Shown one piece after another: positions 86-44,630 of a stretch of DNA of 64,000 bases (position 1 is its first letter; every line of letters begins with the position of its first letter). The stretch spans positions 79,254 through 143,253 of the forward strand of contig CBDFJU010000003.1 of NCBI GenBank assembly GCA_965248515.1, read 5' to 3'. Below the pieces are notes generated by a model that did not search any database, had not been told where the DNA came from, and saw nothing but the letters and a program-made list of their open reading frames with translations. Source of the stretch: Dehalococcoidia bacterium. GTDB taxonomy: Bacteria; Chloroflexota; Dehalococcoidia; SHYB01. The position numbers and the translations under genes were made by a program.

Positions 86-1573
86 CTAACGGGGTTTCCC
101 TGAACGGTCGGCGGCGATAACCTGGGCCGCCTGGGCCTCGCAGCGGGTCCCCTGGAAAAAGTCGTCGTTGCGTGCGGCGTAGAATCTCACCGGGTTGGTG
201 AAGACGAAGTCCCGAAAGTCGGCTTCGGTCATGATCCCTTTCTCCACGGGCTCATGCGCCTCGTGCAGGACCTGCTCCATGTCGGGGACGTCGAAATGAC
301 CGATGTCTGAGCCGAACATTGGTCGGAGGCGAGCGCCGAAGGGGTTCACCCGGGTGTTGAACGCCAACGACGTTAGCGGGTCGTCGGCTTCGCAGCCGAA
401 GTAGAAGTGTGGGACGAAGAGGTCGCGGAGCTGCTCTTCATGCTCTATTCGACAGGCGGCCCAGTCGTCAAGGGAGGGCGGGGGCGGCTCGCGGTCATCG
501 AAGAAAGCCCTGATCTCATCGCGTCGCGCCTTGGCGGCCTCGCCACCGTACTCGTCGATCTTGTCCATGAGGAGGTCAACGTCCAGGTTGGCGGGATCGA
601 CATCCGCCAACACCTCGACGTTCCGCTTCGCCCAGTCTCCCGCCAGACCTGCGTAGAGAGCGCAGGCCCAGCCCACGCCACCTTCCAGGAAGGCGAACCG
701 CAGCCCGGGGAAGCGCCTGGTGACACCGCCCAGGAACAGCGACTTGCACAACGCCTCCCCGCCATCGGCGAAATGGCCGACGTGGTTGTAGACGAAGTTC
801 GATATCGACTGGCGGCTCCCGAAACCTCGGGTCCCGGCGTGAAAAGACGGCGCGACCTTGAGCTCGAGGCACTTCTCCCACACGGGGTCATAGTCGTGCT
901 CGCTGTCGATCCCGAACGTCTCGAGGTGGGTTGCCCTTGCCGCGACTTCCAGGTATTCGCGCCCTAGCGACGGCACGGGGCGGTTCACTCGGCCGTTCAC
1001 CATCGTCGCCTTCAGCCCCAGGACGTTCACGGCGTGCTCGAGCTCATCGATGGCCTCTCGCGGCGTGTGCATGGGGATAACCGCCACCGGCGTCATGCGG
1101 TCCGAAAGTTCCGCGAAGAGCTCGGCATGGTAACTATTAAGGGCCCGGCACCCGACGCGACGCAGCTCCTCATCCTCAAGGCCCGGGACCGTCATGGCCA
1201 TCGTGGGGTAGAGGACCGCGAAATCGATGCCGAAGTCGTCCAGGCGCTGATGCAACAGCCGGGGCAGGTAGCCGGTGGCGCGATCGAGGCTGTTCCTGGT
1301 GGGGAGCACCCACCAGTTGGCCATGGTGGTCCAGGAGTCCCGGCGCTCCTCCGCCGACGTGCGATGCCACTGCGAGGCCATCCGGTCGTAGGTCAGGCCT
1401 CCGGACGCGGCGAACTTCTCGGCCATGCGGGCGCCGCCGATCTGCCTGACGTAGTCGAGGGAATAGCCCTGCATCACCGGCAGGAGCTCCAGGAAATGCC
1501 CGTCGGCGTCGATGACCGGATGGTCCAGACGAGCCCGGACCTTCGCAGACGCAGATAAACCGCTGCTCGACAT
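86..1573 (-). CDS. amidohydrolase-2 family metal-dependent hydrolase (ACMSD-like TIM barrel)
   Basis: 495 aa ORF; N-terminal DADGH metal-binding motif and overall composition typical of amidohydrolase_2. Confidence 0.75.
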   Translation of the reverse strand: MSSSGLSASAKVRARLDHPVIDADGHFLELLPVMQGYSLDYVRQIGGARMAEKFAASGGLTYDRMASQWHRTSAEERRDSWTTMANWWVLPTRNSLDRATGYLPRLLHQRLDDFGIDFAVLYPTMAMTVPGLEDEELRRVGCRALNSYHAELFAELSDRMTPVAVIPMHTPREAIDELEHAVNVLGLKATMVNGRVNRPVPSLGREYLEVAARATHLETFGIDSEHDYDPVWEKCLELKVAPSFHAGTRGFGSRQSISNFVYNHVGHFADGGEALCKSLFLGGVTRRFPGLRFAFLEGGVGWACALYAGLAGDWAKRNVEVLADVDPANLDVDLLMDKIDEYGGEAAKARRDEIRAFFDDREPPPPSLDDWAACRIEHEEQLRDLFVPHFYFGCEADDPLTSLAFNTRVNPFGARLRPMFGSDIGHFDVPDMEQVLHEAHEPVEKGIMTEADFRDFVFTNPVRFYAARNDDFFQGTRCEAQAAQVIAADRSGKPR

Positions 1574-1760
1574 GGCCCCTCCTCACGGTTGGTCGCTTCG
1601 CACACCGGACGGCGGGGAGGCGTCCGTGGCGGCAATTCTACCGCACGAGTCGCCGGGGCCGTAGCGGCCCATACGGCGGTTGACAAACTCCGGGCGCCGG
1701 TGCAAGTTGTTCGGAGCGTTGCGTCCAACGGGACGACGCTCGATCAGAAGGAGGCCCTGA

Positions 1761-2204
1761 GTGGCAGCGATTCGACAAGCGCACGTACGATGGGACGGCA
1801 ACCTGGCCCGCGGCAAAGGCGTGGTCAGCGCCGGGACCAGCAAGGCATTCACCGATCTTCCGGTAAGCTGGGCGTCGAGGACCGAGGCAGCCGACGGGCA
1901 GACAAGCCCCGAGGAGCAGATCGCGGCTGCCCACGCCAGTTGCTATTCGATGGCCCTTTCGGCGGGTCTAGGGGGCGCCGGCACGCCACCCGAACACCTG
2001 GAGGTCAGCGCGACAGTGACCTTCGACAAGGTAGAAAGCGGCTGGAAGGTGCTCTCGAGCGCGCTGGAGGTAAAGGGCACGGTACCCGGGATCGACGAGG
2101 CCGGCTTCAAGAAGGCGGCCGAGGCGGCCAAGGACGGCTGCCCGATCTCCAGGGCGTTGCAGGGGAACGTCGAGCTCAGCGTTGAGGCTACGCTCGCGAA
2201 TTAG
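1761..2204 (+). CDS. OsmC/Ohr family peroxiredoxin-like protein
   Basis: 147 aa; GTG start with GGAGG RBS 7 nt upstream; OsmC-like pattern with two conserved Cys (ASCYSMAL, DGCPISRAL). Confidence 0.75.
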   Translation: MAAIRQAHVRWDGNLARGKGVVSAGTSKAFTDLPVSWASRTEAADGQTSPEEQIAAAHASCYSMALSAGLGGAGTPPEHLEVSATVTFDKVESGWKVLSSALEVKGTVPGIDEAGFKKAAEAAKDGCPISRALQGNVELSVEATLAN

Positions 2205-2265
2205 CCCCCCCGGGACCTCGATTCAGTCCGAATCCGATGGGGCAGCGGCCTCGTACAACTTAGCG

Positions 2266-3405
2266 ATGTCGTTTTTCATCGCGCCCGTGAGCACGCGAAC
2301 CCTGGTATTGGCCATGGGTCTCGTCGCGGGCATAGTCATCGCCGCCTGCGGCGGCGATGGGCCCGCGCCCACGCCTGTCGATCCAACACCAGTCGCCGTC
2401 CTGGAGCCGACAGCGACCTCGGCCCCACCACCTCGGGCACGGGACGCCGATGCCGTCCGTCTCGCCGAGTTGGCTCAGGCGGCCGTCGTCCGGGCGCGGG
2501 AGGTCGTATCGGACGCGGTCCTTCCTCAGATCTACATCGATCCCAACGGGGGAAGGCATGTCTTTTACTTCACGGACGCTGCATCGACGCGCAGCTTCGA
2601 GATCGTTGCGCGAGACACGGCGGCTCCGCCCGGCGAGTGGGAAGTCATCCTCACCGGACTCTCGCCTCTGCTCGGCCACCCCAGGGCCGGCATCGACGCC
2701 GATGCGCTGGCCATAGGTCCCGAGACGGCGATTCGCGTCTCTGCCCAGCCTTGGCCGGGGTGCGAGACGACGACTCTGACGCTGGGTGGGCAAGGCGACC
2801 ACCTCACTTGGACGGTGTTCTGTAACACCGCCACTGGAGGGCTGGTCCTGGGTTTCGTCGACGGCGGCACCGGCGAGTTCATACCATCGACCGCTCCACC
2901 TGCCCTAACACCACCCACCGCCGAGCTCGTTTCTGAAATCGGCACCCAGGTGGGAGCGATCGCGCCCGACTTCACCCTGGAACAGGCTCGGGGCGGGGAG
3001 TTGTCCCTTGCCTCGTATCGCGGCGAAAGCAACGTGGTCCTCATCTTCTATCGCGGCGCCTGGTGAGTCCACTGCCGTCGGCAGCTCGGCGAGCTGCAAC
3101 AGTCCTACGATCGGATACAGCGCCTCGATGCCGAGATCGTCGCCATGAGTACCGACGAGGCTGACGGCATCATGGCCCTGGCCGACCGGCTCGACCTCGA
3201 TTTCCCGCTCCTCGTCGACCCCATCGCCGACGTCGTCCGCGAGTACGGCGTCTTCAACCTCCTGGGCGACGGTCTGGCAACCGCCTCGACCTTCATCCTC
3301 GACAAGAACGGGCGGATCGCCTACCGGTACGTCGGAGACGGCATCAGCGACCGTCCCTCGGTCGATCTCGTAATCGAGGAGCTCGGGGCGGTCCAGCCCA
3401 GCTAG
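2266..3405 (+). CDS. lipoprotein with C-terminal TlpA/ResA-like thiol-disulfide oxidoreductase domain; putative selenoprotein (in-frame UGA at 3064-3066 in WUVHC = UxxC motif)
   Basis: Signal peptide plus lipobox (IAACGG). ORF 2182..3066 stops at TGA and the same frame continues as ORF 3145..3405 (redoxin C-terminus). The TGA sits exactly where the first Cys of the WCxxC motif is expected (VLIFYRGAW-TGA-VHC). Confidence 0.6.
3081..3097 (+). other. SECIS-like hairpin GCAGCUC-GGC-GAGCUGC 15 nt downstream of in-frame UGA
   Basis: perfect 7-bp inverted repeat read directly; shares GCAGC/GCUGC stem with hairpin at 16453-16468. Confidence 0.45.
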
Positions 3406-3438
3406 CCTGACAACAGGAGTGGATACTGCTACGATATA

Positions 3439-3468
3439 TTGACCTCGTGTCCGGGCACATGGTATACA
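3439..3468 (+). promoter_or_regulatory. sigma70-like promoter TTGACC-N18-TATACA
   Basis: near-consensus -35/-10 in an AT-rich island upstream of the 3557 CDS. Confidence 0.5.
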
Positions 3469-3556
3469 TATCAGGTTCAACCATGCGAAATTCCCGCGGG
3501 ACGTTCATTCGCCAGGTGGGCCAGCCAGGGAAAAACAAATGGAGGAAGAAAGAGTA

Positions 3557-3925
3557 ATGGCTGACGAAAACACAGGTCAGGCCGAAGAGCTTGTGCTCGC
3601 TTTCTCCAAGATCATGCGCGGGGATGAGTCGGCCGAGAAAGAGGTCGGCAAGCTGGAGAAGATCGAGCACCGGGCCATGGCCATCACGGCGCTGAAGTCC
3701 GAGCTCGACAAGCTGGAGCCGAACACCGCCCGCTATAAGTGGTTCGGCGTAGCCGACCCATCGCGGCTCTCCTCGATCCGAATCCTGAGGCGCGGCCTTC
3801 AGGGCCTCTACGCCGACGCCGTGCTGCAGCACGCCAACGACAACGTGAAGGACCCCGAAGTGTTGTCGTGGATCCGGCACAACGTCAAAGACGAGCTGCG
3901 CAAGGTGTCGCCCAAGTTCTGGTAG
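3557..3925 (+). CDS. hypothetical protein (stand-alone transcription unit)
   Basis: ATG with GGAGG RBS; lower-GC codon usage; own promoter and rho-independent terminator. Confidence 0.55.
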   Translation: MADENTGQAEELVLAFSKIMRGDESAEKEVGKLEKIEHRAMAITALKSELDKLEPNTARYKWFGVADPSRLSSIRILRRGLQGLYADAVLQHANDNVKDPEVLSWIRHNVKDELRKVSPKFW

Positions 3926-16392: not shown

Positions 16393-17010
16393 ATGAGCGA
16401 CCGTATCAGCTTCGACGTCTATTTCGACTGCACCTGACCTCACGTTTATCAAGCAGCAGTTTGGCTGCGAAACGTGAGAGAGCGCTACGGCGACCGGCTC
16501 CAGATCAACTGGAAGAACTTCCCGCTGGAGCAGGTCAACTCGAAAGAGGGGCCTGACTGGTTCGTCTGGGACCAGGGTGACGACTACCCCAGTCGAGGCC
16601 TGCCCGCCTTCCGTGCCCTCGAGGCGGCCCGCCTTCAGGGCAACGCCGAGTTCGAGCGGCTGCAGTTCGCCCTCCTCGACGGACGCCACGAGCGACGCAA
16701 GGACTTCACCGATCCCGACGACATCGACGAGCTCGCGAAGGAGTCTGGCCTCGACCTCGAGCGACTCCACAAGGACATGACCAGCCCCGATATCCTGCAG
16801 CGGGTGGCGAAAGACTACCAGGCCGGCAAAGAGCGAGGAGTCTTTGGGACACCCACCTTCGTTTTCGAGAACGAGAAACAGGCCTTCGTCCGCCTCAAGG
16901 CCCCTCAAAGTGTCGACGAGTCGGTGCGCGCGTTCGAGATGTTCGTCGAGAACTTCCGTGACAACGGATACTTCGACGAGATCAAGCGGCCGAAGCCGCC
17001 GCGCGACTAG
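16393..17010 (+). CDS. DsbA/FrnE-like thioredoxin-fold oxidoreductase; putative selenoprotein (in-frame UGA at 16435-16437, motif C-T-U-P-H-V)
   Basis: ATG 16393 with AAGAGGTG RBS; 14 codons then TGA, then 12 further codons in the same frame lead into ORF 16474..17010. RISFDVYFDCT-U-PHVY...INWKNFPLEQ aligns to FrnE RVEIWSDIACPWCY...VVWRSFELDP with U on the nucleophilic Cys; C-terminal GVFGTPTFVF is DsbA-like. Confidence 0.6.
16453..16468 (+). other. SECIS-like hairpin GCAGC-AGUUUG-GCUGC 16 nt after UGA
   Basis: 5-bp perfect stem, loop contains GU; same stem sequence as hairpin at 3081-3097. Confidence 0.45.
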
Positions 17011-20584: not shown

Positions 20585-21391
20585 ATGGGTGGAGTCGTTG
20601 GAGTCCGCTTCGCAAAGGCGGGAAAGATACTCAACTACGATGCCGGCGACGAGGACTTTGACCTGAACGAGTACGTCGTCGTGGAGACCGAGGTCGGCCT
20701 CGAGCTGGGATACGTCGTGATCACGCCGAACCAGGTAGTCATGGCCAAGTTCAAGGGACAGCCGCCACCGATTGTGCGTCGAGCGACGCCGGAAGACGTA
20801 CAGGAGCGGGACCGGCTCAAGAGCCGCGCCCAGGAGATTTCGAGTCAGTGTCGCGAGCTGATCCAGGAGCTGGGACTGAAGATGAAACCCGTCGAAGCGG
20901 TGTTCACCCTGGATGGCCAGCACCTGGTCATCTCGTACACCGCCGAAGACCGAGTCGACTTCCGGCAACTCCTTCGCCGGCTGGGCCGAACGGTGCAGGC
21001 GAAGGTCGAGCTGCGCCAGATCGGGCCGCGCGACCAGACCAAGGTCATGGACGGTCTGGGACGCTGCGGAAGGACGCTTTGCTGCTCGACCTGGCTTGTG
21101 GAGTTCCAGCCGGTGACCATGAAGATGGCGAAGGAGCAGGACCTGCCCCTGAGCCCGCCAGGCCTCGCCGGCGTCTGTGGCCGACTTCGTTGCTGTCTCC
21201 GCTATGAGTACGACCAGTACCGTGAGCTGAAGCGTGGGCTGCCGAAGATCGGTAGCACCGTCGAGACCGAACATGGACCGGCCGTCGTCGTCGTGGGACA
21301 CCCGTTGAAACAGACTATTACCGTCCGGCTCCAGAGTGGCGCCTGGACTGAAGTCTCCATGGATGCGCTCCAGCAGAAGGCCCAGGTATAG
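20585..21391 (+). CDS. PSP1 domain protein (YaaT/RicT-like)
   Basis: PSP1 C-terminal Cys-rich region CGRTLCCSTWL...CGRLRCCLRYE; conserved holB-yaaT neighbourhood. Confidence 0.8.
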   Translation: MGGVVGVRFAKAGKILNYDAGDEDFDLNEYVVVETEVGLELGYVVITPNQVVMAKFKGQPPPIVRRATPEDVQERDRLKSRAQEISSQCRELIQELGLKMKPVEAVFTLDGQHLVISYTAEDRVDFRQLLRRLGRTVQAKVELRQIGPRDQTKVMDGLGRCGRTLCCSTWLVEFQPVTMKMAKEQDLPLSPPGLAGVCGRLRCCLRYEYDQYRELKRGLPKIGSTVETEHGPAVVVVGHPLKQTITVRLQSGAWTEVSMDALQQKAQV

Positions 21392-21395
21392 GGAC

Positions 21396-22409
21396 TTGCT
21401 CCCTCGCATTGCGGTGACTCTGGACGACATGCGGGACGCTCCGCCCGACCGGGTGGTCGACTTTGCCCGCCGTGCGGAGGAGCTCGGCTACGAATCAATC
21501 TGGGCGGGAGAGGCGTGGGGACGCGACGTCTTTACGCTCCTGACCGAGATCGCCTGCAACACGACGAGACTAGGACTGGCGACCGGGATCGTGAACGTCT
21601 TCAGCCGTACCCCGGCCGTTGTCGCCCAGAGCATCTCTTCCCTCGACGAGATCTCCGGCGGCCGCGCCATCCTGGGCCTCGGCTCCAGCGGTGAGATCGT
21701 GGTCCGCGACTGGCACGGCCAGCAGTTCCGCAAGCCGCTGCAACGGACCCGCGAGTACATCGAGATCATCAATCTGGCCGTGAGCGGCGAGCGCGTGAAC
21801 TACGAAGGCGAGTTCTTCCAGCTCAAAGGGTTCCGCATGTCGTTCCGTCCGCCCCGGGAGCATATCCCCATCTACGTGGCTTCGATGGGGCCTAAGAACG
21901 TCGCTCTCACGGGCGAGCTTGCCGATGGCTGGTCGCCCATGTGGTTCTCGCCGGGCTATCTGCCCGACGCCTCGAGTTGGCTCCGCAACGGCGCCGAGGC
22001 CAGCGGGCGTGGCGCCGGCGCAGTGGACATAGCGCCGTGGATGCTGGCCTGCGCCACCGACGACCAGGAGACGGCGCGAGGGCTCGCCCGGGCGCATGTC
22101 GCTTTTTACGTCGGCGGGATGGGACGCTACTACACCGAGCTGTTCGGGCGCTACGGCTTCGCCGACGAGGCGGCACGGATCAAAGAGCTCTGGGTCGAAC
22201 GGAAAGACCGGGCCGGCGCGGCCGCGCTCGTCTCCGAGAAGATGCTGGACGCCGTGACCGTGATCGGGACCCCGCGGCAGTGCAGGGAGCGTGTCGCCGA
22301 GATCCACGAGGCCGGCGTCGGCCTTCCTGTCTTTTTCCCCCCGCACGGGTGCTCGGGCGAGATAATCCGCGACACCATCGAGGCCCTGGCGCCTAAGCGC
22401 TTTCAATAG
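21396..22409 (+). CDS. LLM-class (luciferase-like) F420-dependent oxidoreductase
   Basis: bacterial luciferase family TIM-barrel pattern; start TTG 21396 or GTG 21414 uncertain. Confidence 0.7.
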   Translation: MLPRIAVTLDDMRDAPPDRVVDFARRAEELGYESIWAGEAWGRDVFTLLTEIACNTTRLGLATGIVNVFSRTPAVVAQSISSLDEISGGRAILGLGSSGEIVVRDWHGQQFRKPLQRTREYIEIINLAVSGERVNYEGEFFQLKGFRMSFRPPREHIPIYVASMGPKNVALTGELADGWSPMWFSPGYLPDASSWLRNGAEASGRGAGAVDIAPWMLACATDDQETARGLARAHVAFYVGGMGRYYTELFGRYGFADEAARIKELWVERKDRAGAAALVSEKMLDAVTVIGTPRQCRERVAEIHEAGVGLPVFFPPHGCSGEIIRDTIEALAPKRFQ

Positions 22410-43536: not shown

Positions 43537-44058
43537 CTAGACGATGCGGCCCTGATAGCCCTTCAAGAGGCCCTTCACATAGGCCGCCTGGCCGGCATGC
43601 TGATTCAACTCGCTCATCATGTGGCTGAAGACCTGCCCGATACTCATCTTGCGGCCGCCGAAGGCATCGATCTCGTCTTCGAGCTTCTCCGGTCGAAGCG
43701 ACGCCATCAGCCCGGCGGTCTTCTCGCGCACCGCCCCGACGTAGGCCTTAAGCTGCTCCACCGAGGGTGTTCTAAAATCCGCCAGCTCCTCGGGCGTCAT
43801 GCCGGCTCCCGCATACATCGGGTCCGCGGGCATATCCATCTTCTCCGCCCAACCCTGCTCCCAGAGCTGCGTATCGCCGACGATCTTCTGCATCCACCGG
43901 TCCTCGACCCTGCCCATGTGCCAGACGATCCAGCCCACGGAGTTGCTCTCGGGCCCGGGCTGTCTGGCCAGCTCGTCCGGGGTCATACCCTCGAGCACGC
44001 GCTCGACCACACCCCACATCTGGTCCAGGTTGCGGACGACAACGTCTCGGACTTCCAT
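43537..44058 (-). CDS. DinB-family (DinB_2) metal-dependent protein
   Basis: WIVWHMGRVED, His-triad pattern. Confidence 0.65.
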   Translation of the reverse strand: MEVRDVVVRNLDQMWGVVERVLEGMTPDELARQPGPESNSVGWIVWHMGRVEDRWMQKIVGDTQLWEQGWAEKMDMPADPMYAGAGMTPEELADFRTPSVEQLKAYVGAVREKTAGLMASLRPEKLEDEIDAFGGRKMSIGQVFSHMMSELNQHAGQAAYVKGLLKGYQGRIV

Positions 44059-44060
44059 CG

Positions 44061-44630
44061 CTACGCTCCCGGTGAAGGGGCCAGCGGGCCCGTGTACTCA
44101 GCGTCGATCTCGGCGCGCCTCAGGCCGCGCACGTAGGCGATCTGGCCGCCATGCTGGTTCAGCTCCCAGACGAGCTGGGCGAAGAAGTCCTGCGCGCTTA
44201 TCGGCGAGCCCCAGGGAGCGCGGGCTTCCACCGGCTCTCCTTCGGGGTCCCAGCGCTCGAGAAAGTCCAGCGTCGAACGACGCACGGCCTCGGAGTAGCC
44301 AAGAATCAGGTCAAGGCTCGGCGTGTTGAACGCTGCGAGCTGGTCCTTGGAATAGCCCCAGCCGAGGTCACGCATCTCCTCCGCCATGCCGAAGCGCTTG
44401 GCCCAGCCATCGGAGATCCAGAGGTGAGGCTGACGCTGGAAGACACGCTGGACCCAGCCGTCCTCGACACGGGCCATGTGCCAGGCGATGAAACCTATGG
44501 AGTTGGAGTGGGGCGCAGGCTGCCAGCCGAGGTCGTCGGGCGAGAGGCCATCGAGCTGGCGCAACAAGTCCTTGCGGTTGAGGTCGAGCGCCTGGCGAAT
44601 GAAGTCCTTGAGCGCCACGGGGTTGGTCAA
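44061..44630 (-). CDS. DinB-family (DinB_2) protein, tandem paralogue
   Basis: FIAWHMARVEDGW pattern; adjacent to 43537 paralogue. Confidence 0.65.
   Translation of the reverse strand: MTNPVALKDFIRQALDLNRKDLLRQLDGLSPDDLGWQPAPHSNSIGFIAWHMARVEDGWVQRVFQRQPHLWISDGWAKRFGMAEEMRDLGWGYSKDQLAAFNTPSLDLILGYSEAVRRSTLDFLERWDPEGEPVEARAPWGSPISAQDFFAQLVWELNQHGGQIAYVRGLRRAEIDAEYTGPLAPSPGA

Follow-up and report, generated by a model that had tools for sequence, protein, structure and literature searches.

Peroxiredoxin-like (Prx-like) selenoproteins with a UxxC motif have been on record since 2005 (PMC1088965, PMC2398784). A Prx-like protein with UXXC was reported from the Sargasso Sea (PMC1088965), the family was then tabulated in GOS as 'Prx-like 1, pfam00578, UxxC', with 225 selenoproteins and 2,740 cysteine (Cys) homologues (PMC2398784, Table 2), and later reviews call it 'Prx-like thiol:disulfide oxidoreductase', PF00578, UxxC/UxxU (PMC9312934, PMC13188914). 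Here we describe a gene at 2266..3405 of a 64,000-nucleotide stretch of DNA from a Dehalococcoidia bacterium (contig CBDFJU010000003.1; the whole stretch is called the window below), in which a TGA codon stands in frame at the redox-active site of a PF00578 domain. Judged by this domain and by its UxxC motif (W-U-V-H-C), the predicted protein is a member of the Prx-like 1 family.

We consider it very probable (roughly 0.9) that 2266..3405 is a single intact selenoprotein gene that gene callers have split in two. This reading is carried by the single frame, the domain that runs across the UGA, the conservation of the UGA itself, purifying selection downstream of it, the Cys found at the same place in homologues, and a hairpin that is specific to the UGA-containing forms. 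Selenocysteine (Sec) insertion, export with lipidation, and the substrate are what we infer from these observations.

Results

Reading frame and domain

Conceptual translation of 2266..3405 on the forward strand yields 379 codons in one frame, with TGA 3064-3066 (codon 267) as the sole internal stop. The surrounding sequence reads NVVLIFYRGAW-stop-VHCRRQLGELQQSY, including VHC-RRQLGEL after the stop. The two program-listed open reading frames (ORFs), 2182..3066 and 3145..3405, both lie in this frame, and the public gene call P0001, of 266 amino acids, ends at the TGA; an earlier note on this DNA had taken the two ORFs for one frame broken only by TGA, and the single-frame translation bears this out. 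That note had also recognized a lipoprotein signal peptide (IAACGG), and indeed the N-terminus, MSFFIAPVSTRTLVLAMGLVAGIVIAAC-GG, can be read as ending in a lipobox I-A-A-C that fits [LVI][ASTVI][GAS]C, with Cys28 at 2347-2349. Among the sequences described below, the orthologues and most of the 22 genome loci and distant homologues likewise have a lipobox of the L-x-A-C-G type. The product is thus predicted to be a membrane-anchored extracytoplasmic lipoprotein, export and lipidation being read from the signal peptide.

When Cys is put in place of the stop, the joined protein matches PF00578 (AhpC/TSA) in Pfam with an E-value of 3e-30 and 105.1 bits, against a cut-off of 26, and the match spans the TGA; PF08534 (Redoxin) scores 77.6 bits. 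This bears directly on the possibility that the locus encodes two products, a 266-amino-acid lipoprotein ending at the UGA and a separate protein of 86 amino acids starting at ATG 3145. Both pieces are listed as ORFs, and many database entries are fragments of just this kind. However, such an arrangement would cut one thioredoxin-fold domain (residues 229-353) at its active site, and protein-level conservation extends over the 26 codons from the TGA to ATG 3145, an invariant Cys among them. Moreover, the internal starts of the database fragments differ between homologues, which fits gene-caller artefacts. We therefore regard two separate products as extremely unlikely.

The homologues show what residue is to be expected at the stop. 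With the 112 residues that follow the TGA as query, an exhaustive HMMER search gave 1265 relatives, of which the best 150 were inspected. Among these 150, the full-length proteins carry W/F-C-x-x-C at the site (32 CxxC), and about 100 entries are proteins of about 100 amino acids that begin just past it, several of them as MHCRxQLGEL; to judge from their sequences, the latter are orphaned C-terminal halves of mis-called Sec genes. A metagenome scan added 74 further distinct Cys-form genes with F[YF]RG[HD]WCxxC. The TGA had been proposed to occupy the first Cys of a WCxxC-type centre, and both the full-length homologues and the metagenomic Cys forms have WCxxC there. In three entries (P0016, P0034 and P0278) the Sec column itself is occupied by Trp (FRGHF-W-GIC; DYI-W-PYV), most likely because the gene caller translated TGA with genetic code 4. 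Entries of this kind hide selenoproteins as apparent Trp variants.

Conservation of the UGA codon

A search with the joined protein returned four proteins, each covering the N-terminal 66-70% of the query: P0001 itself and three orthologues of about 60% identity. Two of the three orthologues stop at ...FYRGAW, and the third, P0002 (locus L001), is 11 residues longer through a frameshift. This frameshift, a single nucleotide just before the TGA (FYRGRLVNPLPSAAR) at L001:6001-6870 of a 126-kb ENA contig, is probably a long-read assembly error and not biology. The orthologue contigs are syntenic, with OsmC or tRNA-Gln followed by the selenoprotein gene, a 128-amino-acid gene, SDR and DnaJ, and they share this TGA, after which a conserved frame, W-stop-IHCRRQLGELQQSYERIQRLDAEIVAISTDE, stays open to the same C-terminus (for example in L002). 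A second and more distant lineage (L006-L008) reads FYRAFW-stop-TFCRAQLVEL, with a lipobox and a Pro/Thr linker and without the extra N-terminal domain. In a scan of one genome per species, 22 of 22 loci, all from metagenome-assembled genomes (MAGs) of Dehalococcoidia/Chloroflexota, have the TGA, and behind it the frame runs on for about 110 codons to a normal stop. Taking L001-L008 and the 22 genome loci together, and counting tandem domains separately, TGA stands at 30 of 30 distinct sites. A variable TGA column was the outcome that the earlier note had asked to check for, and the column does not vary.

At 29 of these 30 sites the frame stays open beyond the TGA. The exception is the lineage of L003 and L004, in which an 11-nucleotide frameshifting deletion between GGCGAC direct repeats falls in the conserved LLGDGLATASTF motif (L003:5348-5448 and L004:3827-3927, equal to window 3230-3330). 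It is seen in two independent metagenomes and leaves both TGA and hairpin untouched; in this lineage, the orthologue is probably a pseudogene. In a comparison of the window with L002, the region 3' of the TGA has a ratio of nonsynonymous to synonymous divergence (dN/dS) of 0.34 (dS 0.32), and the 45 codons before the TGA one of 0.25. At these substitution rates purifying selection acts on the part beyond the TGA, which is not a gene of its own, so that an in-frame UGA has purifying selection on both sides, as in a bacterial selenoprotein gene.

The same data decide on the proposal that the window gene is itself a pseudogene, that is, a Cys-type peroxiredoxin-like gene in which a nonsense mutation turned TGC/TGT or TGG into TGA and whose downstream part is decaying. 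The public gene call that ends at the TGA would agree with it, and so would the L003/L004 lineage with its frameshifting deletion further downstream. Yet a decaying remnant would lose the second Cys, the frame and the covarying hairpin described below, whereas the same TGA is present at every site across lineages that are merely 40-55% identical, with nearly all downstream frames intact and a dN/dS of about 0.3. The conservation data refute a pseudogene, and we see practically no room left for it.

A hairpin downstream of the UGA

If the UGA is decoded as Sec, a selenocysteine insertion sequence (SECIS) would be expected behind it. A 7-bp hairpin starting 15 nucleotides past the UGA had been pointed out before, and it is found at 3081-3097, where GCAGCUC-GGC-GAGCUGC (17 nucleotides, -10.1 kcal/mol alone) begins after 14 intervening nucleotides, that is, with the 15th; as detailed here, it is conserved, covarying and specific to the TGA forms. 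In a gapless alignment of the 30 Sec-form sites (A3), 92.9% of the cells of the 7-bp helix are paired, against 20-40% when the partner strand is slid by one to three columns. Covariation is seen at two to three pairs, and its score was reached by none of 500 shuffles. The pair of columns 33-43 is GC at 17 sites, AU at 11 and GU at 2, with no mismatch in 30 and never A·C: Gln CAA goes with Leu UUG in 12 of 12 cases and CAG with CUG in 16 of 18, so that both codons change synonymously together (Fisher p 1e-6). At the outer pair all four Watson-Crick forms occur (UA 10, GC 9, AU 2, CG 1), the innermost pair is compensated in L017 through an E-to-Q replacement, and the first base of the loop is a G at all 30 sites.

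The hairpin lies inside the codons of a conserved peptide, and it could therefore have been a mere by-product of the QLxEL motif. This was ruled out by the Cys forms. All six inner pairs form in 23 of 30 Sec forms and in only 2 of 74 Cys forms (p 7e-15), and none of the seven Cys forms with the exact QLxEL peptide forms the stem; these seven use Leu CUC (4/7) or CUA (1/7) and Glu GAA, codons that are absent from the Sec forms. Selection on a stem that is present in Sec forms and rare in Cys forms therefore acts on the RNA, and it is confined to genes that carry the UGA. Such a distribution is what one would predict for a SECIS element. The contrast between Sec and Cys forms is also a clean example of RNA-level selection at synonymous sites inside a conserved peptide motif, and it could be used as a clade-specific SECIS descriptor.

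Decoding machinery and genetic code

Several observations weigh against the selenoprotein reading and have to be set beside the evidence above. Neither selA, selB, selD nor tRNA-Sec is present in the 64-kb window or in the retrieved flanks. The stem is short, with 7 bp and a 3-nucleotide loop, and an overlapping CUGCC/GGCAG hairpin competes with it, leaving the 3081-3097 hairpin an ensemble probability of 0.23 in isolation; this competitor is conserved only in the closest relatives of the window gene. The wider 67-nucleotide stretch is no more stable than its shuffles (z-score 0.19), and there is no Rfam match at gathering thresholds anywhere in the window, the hairpins included. Finally, the 11-nucleotide deletion in the L003/L004 lineage suggests that the gene is dispensable in some relatives.

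As for the machinery, the sole tRNA of the window is a tRNA-Pro, and a Pfam scan of roughly 55 window genes shows housekeeping functions (including DnaJ, L21, DHODH, UvrB, ThyX, lipoyl synthase and E2/E3), none of them SelA, SelB or SelD. Two candidates outside the window were set aside: an AIRS/AIRS_C gene beside L006 was dropped as selD, its sequence being ThiL-like, and a 94-nucleotide 'tRNA-Phe' in L028 was rejected as tRNA-Sec, having no UCA anticodon and lying within coding-like sequence. TAG ends 31, TGA 13 and TAA 9 of the 53 called genes of the window, in a genome with a G+C content of 65%. In high-GC bacteria TGA is usually the dominant stop codon, and a TAG majority is unusual. Reassignment of TGA as a sense codon was rejected, because TGA ends 13 of these 53 genes and the code is therefore not reassigned.

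Another alternative is that the UGA is recoded to a residue other than Sec, either Cys brought in by a tRNASec-like tRNA or Trp or Cys inserted by near-cognate read-through aided by the hairpin. A system is described in which a SelB-like factor and a tRNASec-like tRNA bearing the UCA anticodon insert Cys. Sequence alone cannot tell Sec from another residue at a SECIS-dependent UGA; the lack of tRNA-Sec and sel genes in the window would suit this alternative, as would the W at this column in P0016 and P0034, though these are probably code-4 translations. On the other hand, the UGA stands where a CxxC centre has its nucleophilic Cys, and this is the classic position for Cys/Sec exchange. In the window TGA serves as a normal stop, and catalogues list the family among the selenoproteins (PMC2398784, PMC9312934). 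Dehalococcoidia MAGs with a Sec system, SelA, SelB and SelD included, hold dozens of selenoproteins (46-49 in BSepDB; PMC13326102). Taking both sides together, we consider a residue other than Sec very unlikely at this codon.

A second gene with an in-frame UGA

A second thioredoxin-fold gene, at 16393..17010, had been said to show the same arrangement, and this proved right, with TGA at a Cys column and with both TGA and hairpin kept in orthologues. The gene has a DSBA Pfam domain (PF01323, E 2e-20), and C-P-x-V/A is aligned at its TGA (16435-16437) in 82 full-length homologues. Two syntenic loci (L031 and L032) and a distant one (L033) keep the TGA and the core hairpin GCAGC-AGUUUG-GCUGC; the hairpin region folds at -23.4 kcal/mol, with a z-score of -1.6. 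The matching published families are 'DsbA 3 UxxV' and 'DsbA-like form 2 DxxUP' (PMC2398784, PMC13188914). A window-wide six-frame scan of unannotated space for coding-like flanks revealed no third convincing TGA-split gene. The earlier argument that coincidence is unlikely gains from the fact that the window has only two convincing cases, as it does from the invariant TGA column of the first. The source organism, a Dehalococcoidia-type Chloroflexota, is accordingly predicted from its sequence to have at least two genes in which UGA is decoded as Sec.

Table 1. Coordinates of the two predicted selenoprotein genes, their elements and the neighbouring OsmC/Ohr-family gene in the window.
Feature	Position	Strand	Remarks
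OsmC/Ohr-family gene	1761..2204	+	Pfam OsmC E 1.8e-15; 61-nt gap to 2266..3405
Complete selenoprotein coding sequence (predicted)	2266..3405	+	Sec codon 267; stop TAG 3403-3405
Lipoprotein signal peptide, residues 1-28	2266..2349	+	R11 basic n-region, hydrophobic core, lipobox I-A-A-C
N-terminal domain, ~residues 55-215, then Pro/Thr/Ala-rich linker	2428..2910	+	Lineage-specific, no Pfam match
AhpC/TSA domain (thioredoxin-fold, peroxiredoxin-like), residues 229-353	2950..3324	+	PF00578
In-frame UGA, codon 267, predicted Sec, first residue of U-V-H-C	3064..3066	+	TGA in 30/30 sites
Cys270 (TGC), predicted resolving partner in UxxC	3073..3075	+	Column invariant TG(C/T) in 30-site alignment A3
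SECIS-type hairpin, 7-bp stem + 3-nt loop	3081..3097	+	Inside codons for (R)QLGEL(Q)
DsbA-like selenoprotein gene (predicted)	16393..17010	+	TGA 16435-16437, FDCT-U-PHVY; hairpin ~16439-16478

Family assignment of the domain

The earlier note had labelled the protein as TlpA/ResA-like. At the level of the superfamily this stands, as the top NCBIfam match of the joined protein is a ResA model and ResA structures are found at E 7e-13; at the level of families it does not, because all cut-offs are missed (ResA NF002854, 61 versus 170 bits; TlpA NF047696, 25.7 versus 230; DsbE TIGR00385, 20.4 versus 123). The equivalog cut-offs of BCP (NF006960, 48.9 versus 140 bits) and PrxQ (41.7 versus 260) are missed as well. 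The closest solved structure is AhpE of M. tuberculosis (4xih, E 5e-15). Its alignment pairs FTGIC with WUVHC, so that Cys270 falls on the peroxidatic Cys and Sec267 on the position of the catalytic Thr, and the PxxxTxxC motif of typical peroxiredoxins is absent from the window protein in this alignment, Arg standing in place of Pro and Sec in place of Thr. Genes for cytochrome c maturation, ccdA and dsbD are found neither among the roughly 55 genes covered by the Pfam scan nor in the orthologous loci. The best matches of the domain are AhpC/TSA and AhpE/BCP-type peroxiredoxins, and it presents a CxxC-type site on a Prx scaffold.

Genomic neighbourhood and related loci

The gene had been placed, together with the OsmC/Ohr gene upstream, in a small oxidative-stress locus. 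The OsmC neighbour is real, but of the orthologues only the closest, L001 and L002, have it adjacent, and L003-L005 do not, so that an oxidative-stress locus is weakly supported. A scan of 1500-3700 gave no promoter-like or terminator-like site between the OsmC gene and 2266, and it is possible that the two genes are co-transcribed; the same scan gave one promoter-like site, 3' of the selenoprotein gene, and no terminator in the whole interval. A sigma-70-like promoter match at 3407-3435 lies just upstream of the 128-amino-acid gene (3539-3925) that follows directly downstream, which has no Pfam or NCBIfam match and occupies the same position in L001-L004. Elsewhere in the window (43537-44630, reverse strand, and 21336-22409, forward strand), two DinB/mycothiol-S-transferase-like genes stand side by side and a luciferase-like monooxygenase is encoded; in L003-L005, the orthologous selenoprotein locus likewise has luciferase-like genes at its sides. 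The redox genes of the window further include ThyX and an E3 dihydrolipoamide dehydrogenase.

Conservation of the N-terminal domain of about 160 residues, at about 60% identity, is confined to the syntenic orthologues L001-L005; distant homologues have a PT-rich linker only. The domain contains two conserved Cys (WPGC and VFC). An AlphaFold single-sequence model of the N-terminal 266 amino acids has a pLDDT of 42 and is unusable; in this low-confidence model, the domain would consist of a helix followed by two beta-sheet units.

Some relatives combine two or three Prx-like domains in tandem, joined by Pro/Thr-rich linkers, in one lipoprotein ORF (L012:2086-4119, L020:2083-4101, L016:2770-4188 and L011:1777-3465, in the Dehalococcoidia genomes OZ244718.1, OZ253466.1, OY282365.1 and CBDCIS010000001.1). 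Each tandem domain has its own in-frame TGA, as F-U-GIC or W-U-TYC, and its own hairpin. Read in the same way as the window gene, these ORFs would be bacterial polypeptides with two to three selenocysteines.

Discussion

By analogy with the canonical bacterial mechanism, UGA 3064-3066 would be read as Sec, with the hairpin at 3081-3097 acting as the SECIS that recruits SelB·GTP·Sec-tRNASec to the ribosome. The protein would then be exported and lipidated at Cys28, leaving the mature form tethered to the outer face of the membrane. There, Sec267 would be the attacking nucleophile and Cys270 the resolving residue, with formation of a selenenylsulfide. Through such an extracytoplasmic U-x-x-C cycle, the protein would act as a thiol:disulfide reductase, or possibly as a hydroperoxide reductase, in the cell envelope.

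The most immediate consequence concerns annotation. The window gene and about 100 of its closest relatives (out of the best 150 of 1265) are on record as truncated N-terminal ORFs or as C-terminal fragments of about 100 amino acids, and joining the two halves restores an intact redox enzyme. What is known of selenoprotein biology is unchanged by this, as the gene adds to a family already described from marine metagenomes. Mildly novel are the lipoprotein anchor with the lineage-specific N-terminal domain, the compact SECIS within a peptide motif, and the relatives with two or three Sec domains. It is tempting to go further and to see in the window gene and its relatives an undescribed, Dehalococcoidia/Chloroflexota-specific clade of cell-surface selenolipoproteins, a proposal that we regard as speculative and rather doubtful. 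The features that may define such a clade are Sec in all its members (at each of the 30 sites), a minimal 17-nucleotide SECIS within the codons of the QLxEL helix, and diversification by domain fusion, with the unassigned N-terminal domain in the window gene and two or three tandem Sec domains per polypeptide in other members. If the proposal were true, it would imply that these bacteria efficiently decode multiple UGA codons and export Sec proteins.

The gene has to be compared, above all, with the Prx-like 1 family of Zhang and Gladyshev. Both have PF00578, Sec as the first residue of a thioredoxin-like UxxC motif, abundant Cys homologues and a small G-containing hairpin directly downstream, and both occur in marine and uncultured bacteria. 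The window gene differs in that its domain is the C-terminal part of a lipoprotein with an extra domain of about 160 amino acids, found only in the lineage of the window, and in that its Dehalococcoidia relatives include multi-Sec fusions of two and three domains. The DsbA-like gene of the same window is a simpler case, since its motif D-C-T-U-P-H-V fits both the DxxUP of DsbA-like form 2 and the UxxV of DsbA 3 (pfam01323); no difference from these families was noted, and it is apparently an ordinary member.

Among proteins that are not defined by Sec, ResA, TlpA and DsbE (CcmG) share with the window protein the AhpC/TSA-Redoxin thioredoxin-fold superfamily, the W-[C/U]-x-x-C motif and the predicted membrane-anchored, extracytoplasmic location, but they are anchored by a transmembrane helix and the window protein by a lipobox. 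With AhpE and BCP (PrxQ), for which AhpE Rv2238c (PDB 4xih/1xvw) is the reference, it shares the core YGVFN...G.A...TF(I/V)(L/V)D. The two part at the active site, where the window protein has FYRGAW-U-VHC and AhpE has FFPLAF-T-GIC. Given the replacement of Pro by Arg and of the catalytic Thr by Sec relative to AhpE, the chemistry is expected to be CxxC-like and not that of a classical peroxiredoxin.

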